This document shows, piece by piece, positions 2,054-58,549 of a DNA stretch of 64,000 bases. This DNA is from Acholeplasmataceae bacterium (GTDB lineage Bacteria > Bacillota_I > Bacilli_A > Acholeplasmatales > Acholeplasmataceae). The DNA is taken from positions 640,001 to 704,000 of the forward strand of contig OY775910.1 of NCBI GenBank assembly GCA_963675245.1, given 5' to 3'. The notes under the pieces are model-generated. The model was given only the letters and a program-made list of their open reading frames with translations. It was not told the origin of the DNA and did no database searches. The position numbers and the translations under genes are program-made. The first letter of the stretch is position 1. The number at the start of each line of letters is the position of its first letter.

Positions 2054-2508
2054 ATATATGTCACCGCCCGTTTACACGGAAAACCCACGCAAGTCAATGT
2101 GAGCTCGCGCGTGTTATCATCAATTTTATCAAATTTAATGAGTAAATGATCTTTTGGCATAAATTCAGATACTTGATATGGCCATTCGATAACCACCATA
2201 CCATTACCGTCAATATACTCTTCTAAATCAAAATCATTACCCACTTCATGAAGACGATATAAATCGAGATGATAAAATGTGTGTATTTTATCTTTCGATT
2301 GATATTTTTTCATAATGGTAAAGGTTGGACTATTTACAATTTCGTTAATACCATAACCTTTAGCGATACCTTGAGCCAAAGTTGTTTTACCGGAACCCAT
2401 TTCACCATCCAATAAAATGACGACATGTTTTTCATCTTTTAATAATAGTCCTAATTCAAAACCAACTCTATATGTCTCGTCTGCAGACGTTGTATACTTC
2501 TTTTTCAA
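2050..2508 (-). CDS. tsaE: t6A biosynthesis ATPase TsaE (TTG start)
   Basis: GEMGSGKTT, SPTFTI, HLDLYRL, IEW motifs. Confidence 0.95.
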   Translation of the reverse strand: MKKKYTTSADETYRVGFELGLLLKDEKHVVILLDGEMGSGKTTLAQGIAKGYGINEIVNSPTFTIMKKYQSKDKIHTFYHLDLYRLHEVGNDFDLEEYIDGNGMVVIEWPYQVSEFMPKDHLLIKFDKIDDNTRELTLTCVGFPCKRAVTYI

Positions 2509-2516
2509 TTAAATCC

Positions 2517-3821
2517 CTACTTTAACATATTTTCGTAACCTTGCTTACCTAGCAAAGCGAACATATTCTTTTTATACGCTTCAACACCTGGTTGATTAAA
2601 TGGATTAACACCAATCAAATAAGCTGATAGTGCACATGCTTTTTCGAAGAAATAGACAAGATATCCGAATGTATAACTATCGAACTTAGGTATCGTTAAA
2701 ATAATGTTTGGAACTTGTCCGTCTGTATGTGCCATGACAGTCCCTTTTAATGCTTGTTCATTCACGTAAGACAATTTCTTGCCAGCAATATAATTAAGTT
2801 GATCTAAATTATCTTCATCTTCTGGAATATTGATATCTGCATCAAATTCGTTAACGCGAATAACTGTCTCAAATAAATGTCTTTCTCCTTCTTGAATATA
2901 TTGTCCAAGAGAGTGAAGATCGGTTGAGAAGCCAGCAGAAGCAACAAATAATCCTTTGTTGTCTTTACCTTCAGATTCTCCAAATAACTGTTTCCACCAT
3001 TCGTTCACAAACAACAATCTTGGTTCATATCCAACAAGCATTTCAATCTTTTTACCCATCGTGTACAAAATATAACGGGTTGTCGCGTAAAGGTATGCTT
3101 CGTTTTGAGTCACATCTGGATTCGCAAATCTTTCCATCGCATCCTTAGCGCCCTTTAGCATCGCGTCAGTGTCTGCGTTCGCACATGCGAGAGGTAATAA
3201 CCCTACTGGTGTTAAAACGCTAAATCTGCCGCCAATATCGTCTGGAATGACAAACATTTCATAACCGTTTTGTTTTGAAAGTGAATAAAGCGCTCCACGT
3301 GCTTTATCTGTGGTCGCATAAATACGTTCTTTCGCCTCTTCTTTACCAACACGATCTTCTAAAAGTTTTTTTAGGACTCTAAATGCGATTGCTGGCTCTG
3401 TTGTTGTTCCTGATTTTGAAATAACATTAATACTAAATGATTTATTATCAAGGTAATTAACGAGGTGCTTTAAATAACTACCTGACATTTGATGACCCGC
3501 AAAAATAATTTCTAAATCCCCATCAGAAAATGGTGTCTTTAAAAATTCAATACCCGCTTTGGCACCTAAATAAGATCCGCCAATACCGATAACAACTAAC
3601 ACTTCACTTTGTTTTCTGATTTTTTTGCTCGCTTTAATCACACGTGCATATTCTTCTTTATCATAAGCAGTTGGCCAATCCAACCATCCTAAAAAGTCGT
3701 TACCTGCACCTGTTTTTTCGTGAATCATTTGATGAACTTCTTTTACTCTTTCGTGCAAATCCTCTGGTTGCACACTCAAAAATTTGCGCACATCATTTAG
3801 CGCGATTTGGATAGAATCCAT
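2517..3821 (-). CDS. pgi: Glucose-6-phosphate isomerase
   Basis: [42 protein letters not shown]. Confidence 0.97.
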
Positions 3822-24554: not shown

Positions 24555-24762
24555 AAAGAAAACGCCCTTAGACAAATGCTAAGGACGATTATTCGCGGTA
24601 CCACCTTAGTTCTAGATTAACTCTAGCCCTCAAATCCTTTAACGCAGGTAAACGGGCGTGATTAGCGCCACTCCGGAGTAGATTCATCAATATCAACCTA
24701 ACGCTTTCACCAACCGCGTTTTCTCTAGACGTCATCAATTGATTATGGTCTCCATCTCGTGT
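24555..24762 (-). ncRNA. T-box riboswitch, Ser (UCU specifier)
   Basis: Minus strand: AG-box AGAGA, GGTGAAAG, specifier GAA-TCT-A (24680-82), T-box AAGGTGGTACCGCG (24594-607), terminator CGTCCTTAG/CTAAGGGCG-TTTT; promoter TTTACT-17-TATAAT upstream. Confidence 0.93.
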
Positions 24763-24809
24763 TACTTATATTATAAATTTAAATATCTGAAAAGTAAAGA
24801 TTTAATCTG

Positions 24810-53653: not shown

Positions 53654-54790
53654 ATGATAGACTATTTAATAATTGGATTGTTAGTTGTTTTAATTGGATT
53701 GGTGATTTACACCATTGTTTTACAAAACCGAAAAAAAGAAGCTGGCGAAGCACCTGACATGGGTGATTTTAAAGGTTATATGCAGAAAGAATTCGGAGAG
53801 TTTAAAACAGATTTAGCAGATAAATTTGGAGGCTATAGTAAAGAGAATCAAAAGGATTTAAATGACTTCAAAGATCGTATGATGGCACACATTGAAAAAC
53901 AGATGACAGGTATTAATGAAAAGGTAGAAGAACGCTTAAGTAAGGGATTTAAAGACACAAACGAAACCTTTCATGATGTCATTGAAAGACTATCGAAAAT
54001 CGATGAAGCACAAAAGAAAATTGAAGCTTTATCAGCGGACGTTCTTGATCTTTCAAGCATTTTAAGTGATAAAAAATCAAGAGGAACTTATGGCGAAGTT
54101 CAACTCTATTCAATACTAGAAGCAGTGATGGGAAATAACCCCGAACTTTACGAAACTCAGAAACAAATTGGTGATAATAAAGTAATGGTGGATGCACTCA
54201 TTCATGCACCAGAACCACTCGGTGATATTAGTGTGGATTCGAAATTTCCACTTGAAAATTATCAACGCATGATTGATAAAAAATTAAGCACGCAAGAACG
54301 TGCAAATGCTGAAAAAGATTTCAAGAAAGATGTTAGAAAACATATTGATGATATTGCCTCAAAATATATCATTGATGGTATCACATCTGATCAAGCATTT
54401 ATGTTCATTCCGGCGGAAGCAATCTTCGCAGAAATCACGGCATATCATGAAGACTTAATTATGCATTCTCAGAAACAACGAGTATGGCTTGTATCACCGA
54501 CGACGCTCATTTCAACACTCACAACAATACTCACAATTACTAAGAATATTGAAAGAGATAAACAGACATCATTGATTCGTGAACACCTACGTGCATTAGG
54601 TATTGAATTTGATCGCTATATGAGTCGTTGGGACAAACTTGATAGGACTATTTCTACGGTCGTTTTAGACGCTAAAAATATCAGTGTTTCAAGCAAGAAA
54701 ATTTCGAAACAATTTAAGCATATTTCAGATGCGAAATTTGATGAGTTAGACCTATCTGACGAAGATGAAATTGAAGAAGGTAATAATTGA
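53654..54790 (+). CDS. rmuC: DNA recombination protein RmuC
   Basis: N-terminal TM, coiled coil, RGTYGE, VDSKFPLENY, KHIDDI..KYI, MFIPAE, SPTTL. Confidence 0.93.
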   Translation: MIDYLIIGLLVVLIGLVIYTIVLQNRKKEAGEAPDMGDFKGYMQKEFGEFKTDLADKFGGYSKENQKDLNDFKDRMMAHIEKQMTGINEKVEERLSKGFKDTNETFHDVIERLSKIDEAQKKIEALSADVLDLSSILSDKKSRGTYGEVQLYSILEAVMGNNPELYETQKQIGDNKVMVDALIHAPEPLGDISVDSKFPLENYQRMIDKKLSTQERANAEKDFKKDVRKHIDDIASKYIIDGITSDQAFMFIPAEAIFAEITAYHEDLIMHSQKQRVWLVSPTTLISTLTTILTITKNIERDKQTSLIREHLRALGIEFDRYMSRWDKLDRTISTVVLDAKNISVSSKKISKQFKHISDAKFDELDLSDEDEIEEGNN

Positions 54791-54816
54791 CATTTTTGTT
54801 AGTTGTTAGGTATAAT
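54787..54816 (+). promoter_or_regulatory. Sigma-A promoter of the T-box-NYN-asnS unit
   Basis: TTGACA(54787-92)-18 nt-TATAAT(54811-16). Confidence 0.8.
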
Positions 54817-54822
54817 GAATAA

Positions 54823-55058
54823 CGAAATCTATGAGAAGAGAGTAATCCTCAATTAACGTTAAAAAGCGAGTCGATAAAAGGTGAAAGATCGATTAACGGT
54901 TTAGGGTGAAAAACACTTTGAGTGATAGAAGAAATCCATTTGGAGATTAGAACTATACGTACCCCTGCGTTAAAGGGATTGAGTGCTAGATTTATCTAGA
55001 ACTAAGGTGGTACCGCGGATTTATTCGTCCTTAGCTATTTTTTAAGGACGAATTTTTT
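54823..55058 (+). ncRNA. T-box riboswitch, Asn (AAC specifier)
   Basis: AG-box AGCGA, GGTGAAAG loop, specifier GAAA-AAC-A (54912-14), T-box AAGGTGGTACCGCG (55004-17), terminator ATTCGTCCTTA/TAAGGACGAAT (55023-53) + T-run. Confidence 0.93.
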
Positions 55059-55076
55059 ATTAGAAAGGAAAAAAAT

Positions 55077-55793
55077 ATGAAAAAACCAGAAAATATTGCA
55101 GTATTAATCGATTATGATAACTTTAACAACGAACTTTACTTGGAGTGGCTTTATAAAGCGATTAATAAAATGTCACCAAGTGTAAGGTTATTAGTAAATA
55201 ATGCCTTTTACAGTAACTTAGGTGATACAAAATTAAATCGCAAACTACAAAAATTTGAATTAACACCGATTATGCAGATTAACCACTCAGATATGAAAAA
55301 TGCGACGGACATTAAAATGACAATTGAAGCGATGAAATTATTAGATAATGATTGTATTGATACATTCGTAATCGCATCAAACGATTCTGATTTTTCTGCA
55401 GTCGTTGATTATTTAAAATTTAAAGGTCGCCTCATCATCGGTGCAAGCACCAAGGATGTTTCTTCTCAATACAAAAAACGATTTGATGAATTTATAGATT
55501 TAAACGCTATGATTAATCAAAATAACTCAAAAGAAACAATTTTTGATGATAAAGATCCACGCATTAATGAATTGCTCACCCAAATTCAAAAGATTATGGA
55601 TGCATCAGATAAAGAGTATATTCACTTATCAGATGTCGGAAATATTTTAAGAGACATTTACAAAAAGAAATTTAATCCAAAGAATTTTGGATATAAAAAC
55701 GGAAGAACAGCTGAATTCTTCCAGGTACGATTAAAAAAATATATTGAATGTAAGAAAGATGGCTTGGTTGTCTTAATTAAGCTAAAGAAATAA
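55077..55793 (+). CDS. NYN-domain (LabA/DUF88, PIN-like) ribonuclease with a probable C-terminal OST-HTH/LOTUS domain
   Basis: [30 protein letters not shown]-terminal LSDVGN.L......FNPKNFGY. Confidence 0.88.
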
Positions 55794-55803
55794 GGAGATC
55801 TCC

Positions 55804-57192
55804 ATGGAAACAACCGTAAAAGAGATATTTAGATCAACGAAAGACTATATCGATCAAGAAGTAACACTGTATGGGTGGGTTAGAAATAATCGTGCACAAA
55901 AATCATTTGGTTTTATCAATTTACACGACGGGACGTTTTTTTCACCCATTCAAGTCGTTTATGAAGAAACGCTTAACACATTTAGTGATGCACAAAAGTT
56001 GAGTGTAGGTAGTTCAATCGCAGTTACGGGTGTTCTTAAATTAACACCTGAAATGAAACAACCTTTTGAATTAAAAGCATCAAACATCACACTATTAGGA
56101 GATGCCGATGAATCATTTCCTATTCAACCGAAAAGACACACAAGAGAGTTTTTAAGAGAAGTAGCTCATCTAAGAATGAGAACGAATCTGTTTCAAGCTG
56201 TCTTTAGATTAAGAAGTGTTGTTGCATTCGCTATTCATGAATTCTTTCAAAGAGAAGGGTTTGTTTATGTTCACACACCAATTATTACAGGGAATGACGG
56301 TGAAGGTGCAGGACAAATGTTTAGTGTAACGACACTACCGCTTGAAAAAATGCCCAAAAATGAAGATGGAGAAATCGACTTCAAGAAAGACTTCTTTGGT
56401 CGTAAAACAAATTTAACAGTTACTGGACAATTAGAAGCTGAAGCATACGCTTTAGCGTTCAATAAAGTATATACGTTTGGACCAACATTTAGAGCTGAAA
56501 ACTCAAACACGCAAAGACATGCATCAGAATTCTGGATGATTGAACCAGAAATCGCGTTTTGTGATTTAGAAAAAGATATGGAAATCGCAGAAAAAATGGT
56601 GAAATATATCATTGAATATGTGTTCGCTCATATGCCTGAAGAAATGGACTTTTTCGATCAATGGGTTGAAAAAGGCATTAAATCAAAATTGTTAAAAATC
56701 GTGAATCAACCGTTTGCTAGAGTAACACATAAGGAAGCTATTAATATCTTATTAAAGGCGAATCTCAAATTTGAAAATAAACCAATACAAGGGCAAGATA
56801 TGAACACAGAACATGAAAAATATTTAACAGAAGTTCACTTCAAATCACCTGTGTTTGTAACTGACTGGCCAAAAGACATTAAAGCATTCTATATGCGCAT
56901 GAACGAAGATAATGAGACTGTCGCAGCGATGGATCTTCTCGTTCCAGGAAGCGGTGAATTGATTGGTGGATCTCAACGTGAAGAACGTTTAGATCGACTT
57001 GAAAAACGTATGGATGAAATGGGCGTTCCTAAAGCCGATTTAGAGTGGTATTTAGATTTAAGAAGATATGGTGGATGTGTCCATAGTGGATTCGGCATGG
57101 GTTTTGAACGCCTACTCATGTATTTATCAGGCGTTGAAAACATTAGAGATGTTATTCCTTTTCCAAGAACACCAAAGCACGCAGAGTTTTAA
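55804..57192 (+). CDS. asnS: Asparagine--tRNA ligase
   Basis: [50 protein letters not shown]. Confidence 0.97.
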
Positions 57193-57308
57193 CATTAAAC
57201 TATATAAAAAAAACGTATAAATTTGCAATAAAAACAGTAAAAAAACCTCTATACATACGAGTTATATAAAATACATGTAAAAATTGAAAATTAGTAGAGC
57301 AAAAGCAA

Positions 57309-57341
57309 TTGTAATTTTTACATTAGTATTATATAATACTA
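57309..57341 (+). promoter_or_regulatory. Promoter of the ABC operon with a perfect 18-bp palindrome over the -10
   Basis: TTGTAA(57309-14)-17 nt-TATAAT(57332-37); TAGTATTATATAATACTA (57324-41). Confidence 0.65.
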
Positions 57342-57358
57342 TTGTTGAGGTGAAGCAG

Positions 57359-57445
57359 ATGTATCGAATTATCTACACAACACCAACCACATATACAGTT
57401 TCAGAAAGTACTTATTTTTCATTTACAAAAATCTATAAGCACTAA
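57359..57445 (+). CDS. Putative 28-aa leader peptide (not in ORF track)
   Basis: GAGGTGA SD 5 nt before ATG; MYRIIYTTPTTYTVSESTYFSFTKIYKH*; stop lies inside the terminator 5' arm. Confidence 0.55.
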   Translation: MYRIIYTTPTTYTVSESTYFSFTKIYKH

Positions 57446-57474
57446 GGGTGTATGCCTAAAGTGCTTTTATTTTT
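57437..57474 (+). terminator. Attenuator-type terminator upstream of the ABC ATPase
   Basis: AAGCACT(57437-43)/AGTGCTT(57460-66) plus inner AGG/CCT, followed by TTATTTTT. Confidence 0.6.
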
Positions 57475-57499
57475 ATAGAAATTTAAAGGAGCATAGTAC

Positions 57500-58549
57500 A
57501 TGGAGATACGCATTGAGAATTTAACAAAAATATTTACCGACAAAGCAGGTAACGAAACACATGCAGTTGAAGATTTGACAGTAACCATACCTTCAGGAAA
57601 ACTAATTGGTCTATTAGGACCTAGTGGTTGCGGAAAAACGACAACTCTTTTTATGATTGCTGGCTTACATAAACCAACATCAGGAAAAATATTTTTTGGG
57701 GAAGAGGAAGTGACCAAACTTTCTTCAGACAAAAGAGGAATTGGTCTTGTTTTTCAAAATTATGCGCTTTATCCTCATATGACCGTTAAACAAAACATTA
57801 TGTTTCCATTAGAAAATTTGCGCGTGAGTAGAGAAGAAGCACTAGCTCGTGTTGAAGAAATGGCAGCATTAGTAAGAATTGAAGATCAATTAAATAAAAA
57901 ACCAGCACAGTTATCTGGTGGACAACAACAACGTGTCGCGATTGCTCGTGCATTAGTTAAGAAGCCAAGAGTGTTATTGTTAGATGAACCACTTTCAAAC
58001 TTAGATGCAAGATTGCGTCTTCAAACACGTGAAGAAATTAAAAGAATTCAACGTGAAACAGGTATTACAACGATCTTTGTCACACATGACCAAGAAGAAG
58101 CGATGAGTATTAGTGATGAAATCGTAGTTATGAAATCAGGTTTAAAACAGCAAAAAAATGAACCACAACAGGTGTATTTAAAACCAGTTAATAAATTTGT
58201 TGCTGAATTTTTAGGGAATCCACCTATTAATATCGTTGAAGGTGAAGTAAAAGATAATCAACTTTATATTAACGATATTAAACTAGCAAACAAAAATGCA
58301 AAAGATGGTAATTACGATGTTGGTCTTCGTCCAGAAGACTTTGTTATTAGCAAAGAAGGCATTAAAGCTGTTGATCCAGTTGTTGATACAATCGGTAGAG
58401 ATACCATGATTAGATTTAACGTTGGAGATACCGCTATTCGTGCTTTAGTAAATTCTGATACACTATCAGAAGATAAACATATCGTATTAACGGTCAAAGA
58501 ACAAAAAATACTATTATTTGATAAAGAAAGTGGTGAAACAATCAAATGA
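57500..58549 (+). CDS. Carbohydrate-family (MalK/UgpC-like) ABC ATPase
   Basis: GPSGCGKTT, VFQNYALYPHM, LSGGQQQR, DEPLSNLDA, VTHDQEEA, C-terminal TOBE-like region. Confidence 0.92.
   Translation: MEIRIENLTKIFTDKAGNETHAVEDLTVTIPSGKLIGLLGPSGCGKTTTLFMIAGLHKPTSGKIFFGEEEVTKLSSDKRGIGLVFQNYALYPHMTVKQNIMFPLENLRVSREEALARVEEMAALVRIEDQLNKKPAQLSGGQQQRVAIARALVKKPRVLLLDEPLSNLDARLRLQTREEIKRIQRETGITTIFVTHDQEEAMSISDEIVVMKSGLKQQKNEPQQVYLKPVNKFVAEFLGNPPINIVEGEVKDNQLYINDIKLANKNAKDGNYDVGLRPEDFVISKEGIKAVDPVVDTIGRDTMIRFNVGDTAIRALVNSDTLSEDKHIVLTVKEQKILLFDKESGETIK

Follow-up and report, generated by a model that had tools for sequence, protein, structure and literature searches.

A predicted NYN–LOTUS endoribonuclease gene as first cistron of an asparagine T-box operon in an Acholeplasmataceae bacterium

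T-box regulons are regarded as sets of genes for aminoacyl-tRNA synthetases, amino-acid biosynthesis and transport, with a few regulators. T-box leaders may also be substrates of ribonucleases: the thrS leader of B. subtilis is cleaved by host RNases. Two bacterial proteins serve as references for the NYN nucleases: Rae1, a ribosome-associated NYN RNase of B. subtilis without a LOTUS domain, and cyanobacterial LabA, known genetically only, as a clock-output factor. The locus described here joins both subjects. It lies in a stretch of 64,000 nucleotides (nt) from an Acholeplasmataceae bacterium (GenBank assembly GCA_963675245.1, contig OY775910.1, positions 640,001 to 704,000 of the forward strand), hereafter the window, in which an Asn-specific T-box leader precedes a gene for a predicted NYN–LOTUS endoribonuclease, followed by asnS, the gene of asparaginyl-tRNA synthetase (AsnRS). 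The genome of the window is labelled G000; other G, P and L labels denote compared genomes, proteins and loci.

According to passages of Wels 2008 (PMC2494555), asnS frequently occupies the second position in T-box operons, and for 8% of T-boxes the gene downstream has an unknown or unrelated function. Cleavage of the S. aureus met T-box leader by RNase III is reported in part of PMC7913692. As for the nuclease, passages of Anantharaman et al. 2010 (PMC2848206) describe bacterial proteins combining an LK-nuclease and an OST-HTH domain as lacking conserved gene neighbourhoods, propose that they are stand-alone RNA-degradation enzymes, and treat OST-HTH as a predicted RNA-binding module. RNase activity is established for the animal protein MARF1, as stated in part of PMC6217404. 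The original prediction, made on the letters of this stretch, held that no T-box-regulated nuclease had been described. This stands as far as literature searches go: they returned no nuclease gene under T-box control, their coverage excluding the papers Vitreschak 2008 and Gutierrez-Preciado 2009 and, for Wels 2008, the gene tables. Neither "nuclease" nor "RNase" occurs in the main text of Sun 2013 (PMC3766115).

The arrangement of signals at the locus gives good support to an Asn T-box operon in which the NYN gene comes first and asnS follows, and in which the only visible transcription route would pass through the T-box terminator. The features are the following:

54787..54816, + strand: sigma-70-type promoter, TTGACA-18-TATAAT, 12/12 matches
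54822..55035, + strand: Asn-specific T-box leader RNA (RF00230, 112.1 bits)
54912..54915, + strand: specifier codon AAC (Asn) with the conserved 3' purine A, from the Rfam consensus alignment
55000..55034, + strand: T-box sequence and antiterminator, AACUAAGGUGGUACCGCG, with the UGGU bulge at 55008-55011
55023..55059, + strand: intrinsic terminator with a 12-bp stem (55023-55053), a 7-nt loop and a T run (55054-55059)
55063..55069, + strand: ribosome-binding site of the NYN gene, GAAAGGA, matching the leader's original pre-asnS site in G002 and G003
55077..55793, + strand: NYN plus OST-HTH/LOTUS gene, 238 amino acids (Pfam, structure model)
55792..55797, + strand: ribosome-binding site of asnS, AAGGAG, overlapping the NYN stop codon TAA (55791-55793)
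55804..57192, + strand: asnS, asparagine--tRNA ligase, 462 amino acids (NCBIfam NF003037)
53654..54790, + strand: rmuC-like gene, upstream context (Pfam RmuC, 7.5e-58)

The leader was scored with the Rfam covariance model RF00230 (gathering score 93), which it matches over the complete model (1-219) with 112.1 bits and an E-value of 1.2e-24; the orthologous leaders of G005 and G006 reach 116 and 108.7 bits. The 3' end of the specifier loop reads GAA-A-AAC-A, with AAC at 54912-54914, and the AAC-A specifier is retained in five related leaders (G005, G006, G002, G003 and G014). This codon fits the sole tRNA-Asn(GUU) of G000 as well as the downstream asnS. The T-box sequence at 55006-55017 is GGUGGUACCGCG; the N of its UGGN bulge is U and the discriminator of the tRNA-Asn is G, giving a wobble pair. 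Around the bulge, CUAAGG and CCUUAG fold as the antiterminator, whose 3' strand (55024-55034) doubles as the 5' strand of the terminator. The terminator folds at -13.8 kcal/mol (z = -6.29), a stability attained by 0 of 200 shuffled sequences. By its sequence features the leader is a genuine transcriptional Asn T-box, for which tRNA-dependent read-through is predicted.

The position of the promoter is kept in G005, G006, G002 and G003, with a -35 TTGACN and a -10 TATAAT. The stop codon of the rmuC-like gene lies inside the -35 hexamer with no terminator in between, and rmuC is also found upstream of the T-box in G005 and G006. The NYN ATG lies 23 nt past the terminator stem and the asnS ATG 10 nt beyond the NYN stop, distances that leave no room for an extra promoter. 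The overlap of the NYN stop with the asnS site, TAAGGAG, is kept in G000, G005 and G006. The assignment of asnS is firm, with equivalog matches of 654.8 bits to NF003037 (cut-off 414) and 603.9 to TIGR00457 (cut-off 342.6). The original prediction had given the order promoter, Asn(AAC) T-box, terminator, NYN and asnS, with the NYN ATG about 20 nt past the terminator, asnS 10 nt after the NYN stop, its Shine-Dalgarno sequence overlapping that stop, and no separate intergenic promoter; each of these elements was found as described.

It is most unlikely that NYN, asnS or both are expressed mainly from an internal promoter, with the T-box not governing them. Such a promoter could be seen in the only promoter-like match within the NYN open reading frame (ORF), TTTACA-17-AAGAAT at 55657-55685, which agrees at 9 of the 12 hexamer positions scored, or in another 9/12 match that G005 and G006 share elsewhere in position. 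However, such matches occur at chance frequency, 8 being observed in 54500-57600 against 13.7 +/- 4.4 in shuffled sequence; the G000 match has no counterpart at the same position in its sister genomes G005 and G006; and, besides the narrow gaps, the ancestral asnS depends on the T-box alone.

In the proposed mechanism, transcription would begin at the consensus promoter, and tRNA-Asn(GUU) would be recognised by its anticodon through the AAC specifier of the leader. If this tRNA is uncharged, its free CCA end would pair with the UGGU bulge, holding the antiterminator; without uncharged tRNA, the 12-bp terminator would form 23 nt ahead of the first start codon. Read-through would yield one mRNA encoding the NYN–LOTUS protein, then AsnRS, each with its own ribosome-binding site, and the level of the former would follow that of the latter as tRNA-Asn charging changes.

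How far such a switch may go depends on the genome background. G000 is a complete genome of 1.63 Mb (33.9% G+C), with a single full-length asnS match; genome searches gave no asnA match and no GatB (GatB_N) match. Because there is one asnS and no GatB match, AsnRS appears to be the sole source of Asn-tRNA, which requires substantial read-through of the operon at all times. "Induced by starvation" consequently means a level that is raised, not switched on from zero. In this sense, the proposal that the RNase is induced by Asn starvation stands for the predicted T-box-dependent co-expression with asnS; the Asn-specific function it implied is conjectural.

G000 has a second Asn T-box, L003 (G000:C1:202711-202941, - strand; 136.9 bits, with AAC-A as specifier), upstream of a gene for an asnB-type asparagine synthase, and the Asn regulon of G000 comprises asnB plus NYN-asnS. 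In the whole genome there are 14 T-box matches, 11 of which exceed the gathering score, and after 3 of the 14 an extra first cistron stands before a synthetase: NYN in one case and a GNAT gene in two. The GNAT genes (Acetyltransf_3, RimJ/RimL-like) lead the T-box operons of valS and of hisS-aspS; they lie outside the window, at L004:931-1464 (-) and L014:1620-2225 (+). An additional T-box is found within the window at 24578-24766 (- strand; 102.4 bits), ahead of a 438-amino-acid ORF. In G014, a lysine riboswitch (L061, 825-990, - strand) and the Asn T-box of asnS are divergently oriented, some 250 nt apart.

The protein encoded by the first cistron matches Pfam NYN (PF01936) on residues 6-142 (nt 55092-55502; 2.3e-18, 67.6 bits, cut-off 24.2) and OST-HTH (PF12872) on residues 165-208 (3e-6, 27.4 bits, cut-off 23.8). 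The C-terminal LOTUS-type winged helix covers residues about 161-238 (nt 55557-55790): in the model of this domain, helices 161-177, 184-194, 201-204 and 211-218 are followed by a beta hairpin, 223-236. The acidic motifs IDYDN, KNATD and SNDSDF are present in the ORF, and both domains score above their cut-offs in the search with profile hidden Markov models that had been suggested, which bears out the description of intact motifs and a C-terminal OST-HTH/LOTUS domain. The predicted catalytic set D12, N15, D78, D103 and D105 is invariant across a 77-sequence alignment of diverse relatives. The family is large: a search of 1.84 billion representatives returned 2549 relatives at E <= 0.001 (50% representatives).

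The AlphaFold (AF2) model has a mean predicted local distance difference test (pLDDT) of 93.2 and a predicted template-modelling score (pTM) of 0.87. The best solved structures retrieved with Foldseek are VPA0982 (2QIP; E 2.9e-8) and the MARF1 NYN domain (E 3e-7); 2QIP and the mouse/human MARF1 NYN structures 5YAA and 6FDL are all returned with probability 1.00 and template-modelling scores on target of 0.69-0.77. The superposition on the MARF1 NYN domain has a root-mean-square deviation of 2.6-3.3 Å at 16-17% identity. A profile search of PDB sequences agrees with Foldseek, the MARF1 chains being marginal (E 0.043-0.11). From these motifs and this model, we infer that the product is enzymatically active, as a metal-dependent endoribonuclease of the LabA/MARF1 (LK-nuclease + OST-HTH) type; MARF1 itself is comparable in function but stands outside the family as strictly defined. 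The Pfam scan, which reported families at E <= 0.01, gave only NYN, OST-HTH and PIN7: no match to the YacP-type NYN (PF05991), no RRM and a single LOTUS domain were reported. The analogy with Rae1 put forward in the original prediction is not sustained, as the protein is of the LabA/MARF1 type.

A reading in which this NYN domain does not act as an RNase, and the protein is instead regulatory or DNA-directed, or an accessory or defence-type nuclease that uses the operon for its expression, is very unlikely. Passages of the 2017 PIN-superfamily classification (PMC5499597) offer no bacterial NYN.COG1432 member with a demonstrated activity, and in G007 the sister copy of the gene (L033, 3-2746) stands beside a GmrSD_C-like gene and a PLD + DpnI_C methyl-directed restriction gene, both of which would suit this alternative. 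Against it, the complete acidic set is conserved, among structures of known activity the NYN RNase domains of MARF1 come nearest, and the fused OST-HTH is the predicted RNA-binding module introduced above (PMC2848206, in part). The PADLOC defence models gave 0 families at E <= 0.01 for the protein, and a defence role is ruled against by this lack of a match. Its one PHROG match has no function assigned. A predicted complex of the NYN protein with AsnRS scored 0.00 against a mark of 0.32, which is evidence neither way.

The Asn content of the protein had been noted from the sequence. The hand count of about 22 Asn in 238 residues was exact: 22/238 amounts to 9.2%, the 98th percentile of G000 ORFs of at least 200 amino acids. 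Relatives without a T-box range from 5.8 to 12.7%, and more distant relatives have a median of 6.9%. Asn-richness as an adaptation is rejected on these figures, T-box-free relatives being equally Asn-rich.

The history of the arrangement can be read from 61 relatives that were compared, in 27 of which the NYN protein was matched; neighbours were checked at 30 loci. Only in G000, G005 and G006 (3 of the 30 loci) does asnS adjoin NYN, in each case in the order rmuC, T-box, NYN, asnS. Among 20 NYN loci scanned with Rfam, a T-box was found at G005 and G006 only. A same-strand T-box lies upstream of asnS at 18 of 30 asnS loci, as detected with nhmmer: directly in 13 (gap 35-84 nt), with asnA in between in 2 (G040 and G044), and with NYN in between in 3. 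Within the genus, asnS was matched in six further genomes (G001, G002, G003, G007, G008 and G009), and in every one of them the T-box stands directly before asnS, 61-65 nt away. In G002 and G003, an upstream coding sequence stops just before the same promoter (by eye; no rmuC search was made), and the leader ribosome-binding site, TAGAAAGAGG, corresponds to the site that precedes NYN in G000, TAGAAAGGA. In G000, G005 and G006 asnS has acquired a new TAAGGAG, conserved in all three, and these genomes form a clade in the asnS tree with 100% support in the Shimodaira-Hasegawa-like approximate likelihood ratio test (SH-aLRT). Because the direct form prevails in the rest of the genus and the ribosome-binding site is shared, the NYN ORF was inserted into an older T-box-asnS unit, just behind the ribosome-binding site of the leader, in the ancestor of G000, G005 and G006. 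As a separate observation, the asnS of G008 (L053, 1501-2889, - strand) has one in-frame TAA, for which a sequencing error, a pseudogene or recoding is possible; this genome is 92% complete with 3% contamination.

The inserted gene is of an unusual kind. G000 has a single NYN gene, of a divergent type, and the standard Mollicutes type is absent. In a tree of 45 NYN proteins, from which the program dropped one row, the six clade sequences group together (support 100/99); their sister is formed by G007, P0011 and P0013 (99/99), and this lineage is separated from the standard Mollicutes NYN by a stem of 1.01 changes per site. The clade protein has about 40% identity with the standard type, whose N-terminal sequences are very alike across families (by eye; no identity was computed). 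P0002, P0004 and P0006 are 76-89% identical to the NYN protein, and a metagenome scan for further clade members returned only the G005 contig. G007 falls in the other subclade of the genus in the asnS tree, and its close relative G009, a genome 99% complete, has no NYN match. Given this patchy distribution, the divergent NYN type probably moved horizontally. In G007, the NYN gene overlaps a small unassigned ORF downstream.

Whatever its origin, the gene is maintained. For pairs among G000, G005 and G006, the proportion of nonsynonymous differences (pN) is 0.062-0.097 for NYN compared with 0.067-0.077 for asnS. Synonymous sites are saturated among the three genomes (pS, the corresponding synonymous proportion, 0.66-0.80), and in the sole pair for which both could be computed the ratio of nonsynonymous to synonymous rates (dN/dS) is 0.061 for NYN versus 0.047 for asnS. 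Both the NYN and the LOTUS domain are constrained, relaxation being confined to the 15-residue linker. The NYN gene is under purifying selection about as strong as that on asnS; it is not a decaying passenger. The original prediction had allowed for a passenger insertion, which as to origin is left fully open by the insertion in one clade but as to neutrality does not hold, given this selection. It had also named, as a finding that would refute it, an arrangement unique to one strain under relaxed selection; what was found is an arrangement in three species with a dN/dS of about 0.06.

In a further reading the RNase acts in cis, cleaving the leader or the intercistronic region of its own operon transcript and so setting the stability of the asnS message. 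Cleavage of the S. aureus met leader does alter the stability of the downstream mRNA, according to part of PMC7913692, and the NYN gene lies physically within its would-be target transcript. Yet no result of the analysis supports it, the other genomes of the genus run T-box-asnS without NYN, and the 10-nt intercistronic gap holds no obvious structured target, the fold of the stretch 55760-55830 being unremarkable (z = -1.98). This cis-acting role is most unlikely.

A survey of the Bacilli shows how rare the arrangement is. PF01936 was searched in 401 evenly drawn genomes and found in 116 of them (122 matches in total), whence 107 loci were newly taken in, 15 being already in the set. For loci beyond the 20 scanned with Rfam, T-boxes were sought with a core pattern and with an nhmmer profile built from 13 G000 leaders, run on 179 loci. 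With these tools, less sensitive than the Rfam model and apt to let weak or truncated T-boxes escape, a T-box directly before NYN was found only in G000, G005 and G006. Other T-boxes near NYN occur at four places only: the genus g20, G172, G410 and L115. In g20 (G028 = L038, G333 = L152, G296 = L161) a T-box-trpB unit is followed by a 300-amino-acid NYN gene; of the two trpB-NYN spacers inspected, that of G333 holds a terminator and a promoter and that of G296 a promoter. In G172 (L207), an Asn T-box at about 695-891 precedes asnS (837-2309) and an NYN-only gene (2483-3064, 193 amino acids), and the 174-nt gap between the two genes holds its own extended -10 promoter, TGnTATAAT. In G410 the T-box is downstream of NYN, and in L115 it is on the opposite strand. 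A general link between NYN and T-boxes in Bacilli is rejected, the remaining adjacencies being separate units. NYN flanks are heterogeneous across the 107 loci: aminoacyl-tRNA synthetases are 2 of 149 scanned flanking proteins (L207 and L227), about chance. A tRNA gene lies within 500 nt of NYN at 1 of the 107 loci, on which a link with tRNA genes is rejected as well, and anywhere in the flanks at 4 of the first 20 loci.

Several loci of this survey have features of their own. The 300-amino-acid g20 protein seems to hold two OST-HTH-like regions (no Pfam scan), and in G382, the fourth g20 genome sampled, other genes are found upstream of NYN. G172 belongs to a distant Bacilli family of about 51% G+C, and its asnS-NYN adjacency is a second, independent one, probably coincidental. 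In L227 (G353), a 566-amino-acid ORF with a weak NYN match (5.5e-11) precedes a 635-amino-acid class IIb synthetase fused to tRNA_bind. In G044 (L031, 845-2199), an HNH endonuclease gene directly precedes the NYN gene.

Two readings of the operon bear on its function. According to the one we favour, the NYN protein is probably a general, stand-alone RNase of RNA turnover or processing, whose dosage became tied to that of asnS as a horizontally moved gene landed behind the leader. This reading is preferred because the layout occurs in a single clade, the NYN type appears mobile, Asn-richness is common to T-box-free relatives and G000 tolerates other extra cistrons. The link with Asn would then follow from where the gene landed; it may have gained a use later, but it does not argue for an Asn-specific substrate.

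The other reading, which we hold to be unlikely, sees a starvation effector: an RNase recruited under the T-box for a substrate relevant to Asn limitation, be it mRNA on ribosomes stalled at Asn codons, uncharged tRNA-Asn, or bulk mRNA whose removal lowers the demand for Asn-tRNA. The transcription of NYN, predicted to depend obligatorily on T-box read-through, would suit this role, as would selection as strong as on asnS and a long stem branch compatible with a shift of function. In addition, NYN occupies the slot that asnA, a true Asn-supply gene, has in G040 and G044, and bacterial NYN neighbourhoods hint at tRNA/rRNA maturation genes in passages of PMC5499597. On the other side, the layout is found in 3 of the 116 NYN-bearing genomes (401 Bacilli), the nearest relative of this NYN type, in G007, is without a T-box link, and Asn-richness is not particular to T-box-linked copies. 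Neither tRNA genes nor synthetases are common around NYN, as the counts above indicate, and the g20 trpB and G172 asnS cases are separate transcription units with their own promoters.

Some points weigh against the position-driven co-expression that we favour. Selection of the strength observed at saturated synonymous divergence exceeds the expectation for a neutral passenger, and the long stem of the NYN lineage may reflect a shift in function connected with the new regulation. A search of sequencing runs listed no RNA run containing this DNA, and both co-transcription and induction are deduced from the sequence. The arrangement is seen in three genomes only, which makes the conservation of gene order weak evidence either way. 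Finally, passages of the 2017 classification (PMC5499597) give the function of NYN.COG1432 as unknown and functional studies as lacking.

A conserved, selected RNase gene as T-box cargo would widen the known content of T-box regulons, and deacylation of tRNA-Asn offers a testable condition for the production of a bacterial NYN/LabA + OST-HTH member, in a family with thousands of members and no assigned activity. The locus is also a clean case of a promoterless gene captured by a riboswitch operon: the incoming ORF took the leader's ribosome-binding site, and asnS gained an overlapping one. The weight of these points is limited by a narrow distribution, in three uncultured species. A wider idea, doubtful at present, is that NYN–LOTUS nucleases are effectors responding to tRNA charging, the Acholeplasmataceae operon being one of several independent recruitments beside a cognate synthetase in T-box operons. 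The enzyme of this operon would then be made while tRNA-Asn is uncharged and act on the mRNA of ribosomes paused at Asn codons or on tRNA-Asn itself. If true, this would open the first physiological approach to a very large family of bacterial RNases; were the enzyme to have an Asn-linked substrate, the interest would rise sharply.

In comparison with known systems, the regulatory half of the locus conforms to the transcriptional T-boxes of Firmicutes: a full-length leader, a specifier, a T-box bulge, competing antiterminator and terminator, and a cognate synthetase. It differs from them in its first cistron, here a predicted RNase and not a synthetase, a biosynthetic enzyme or a transporter. 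In the known cases of T-box leader cleavage, the leader is the substrate of an RNase encoded at another locus, whereas here the T-box carries an RNase gene as its cargo. The protein shares with the LK-nuclease/DUF88 + OST-HTH family (NYN.COG1432; VPA0982, 2QIP) the two-domain architecture, the invariant acidic residues and the fold, but it is a divergent, long-branch member placed inside a riboswitch-controlled synthetase operon. Rae1/YacP of B. subtilis (PF05991) belongs to the same PIN-like NYN superfamily but to another Pfam family. Finally, MARF1 of the animal oocyte has the same succession of a NYN catalytic domain and LOTUS/OST-HTH; it carries an RRM and tandem LOTUS domains, whereas for the NYN protein no RRM and a single LOTUS domain are reported.

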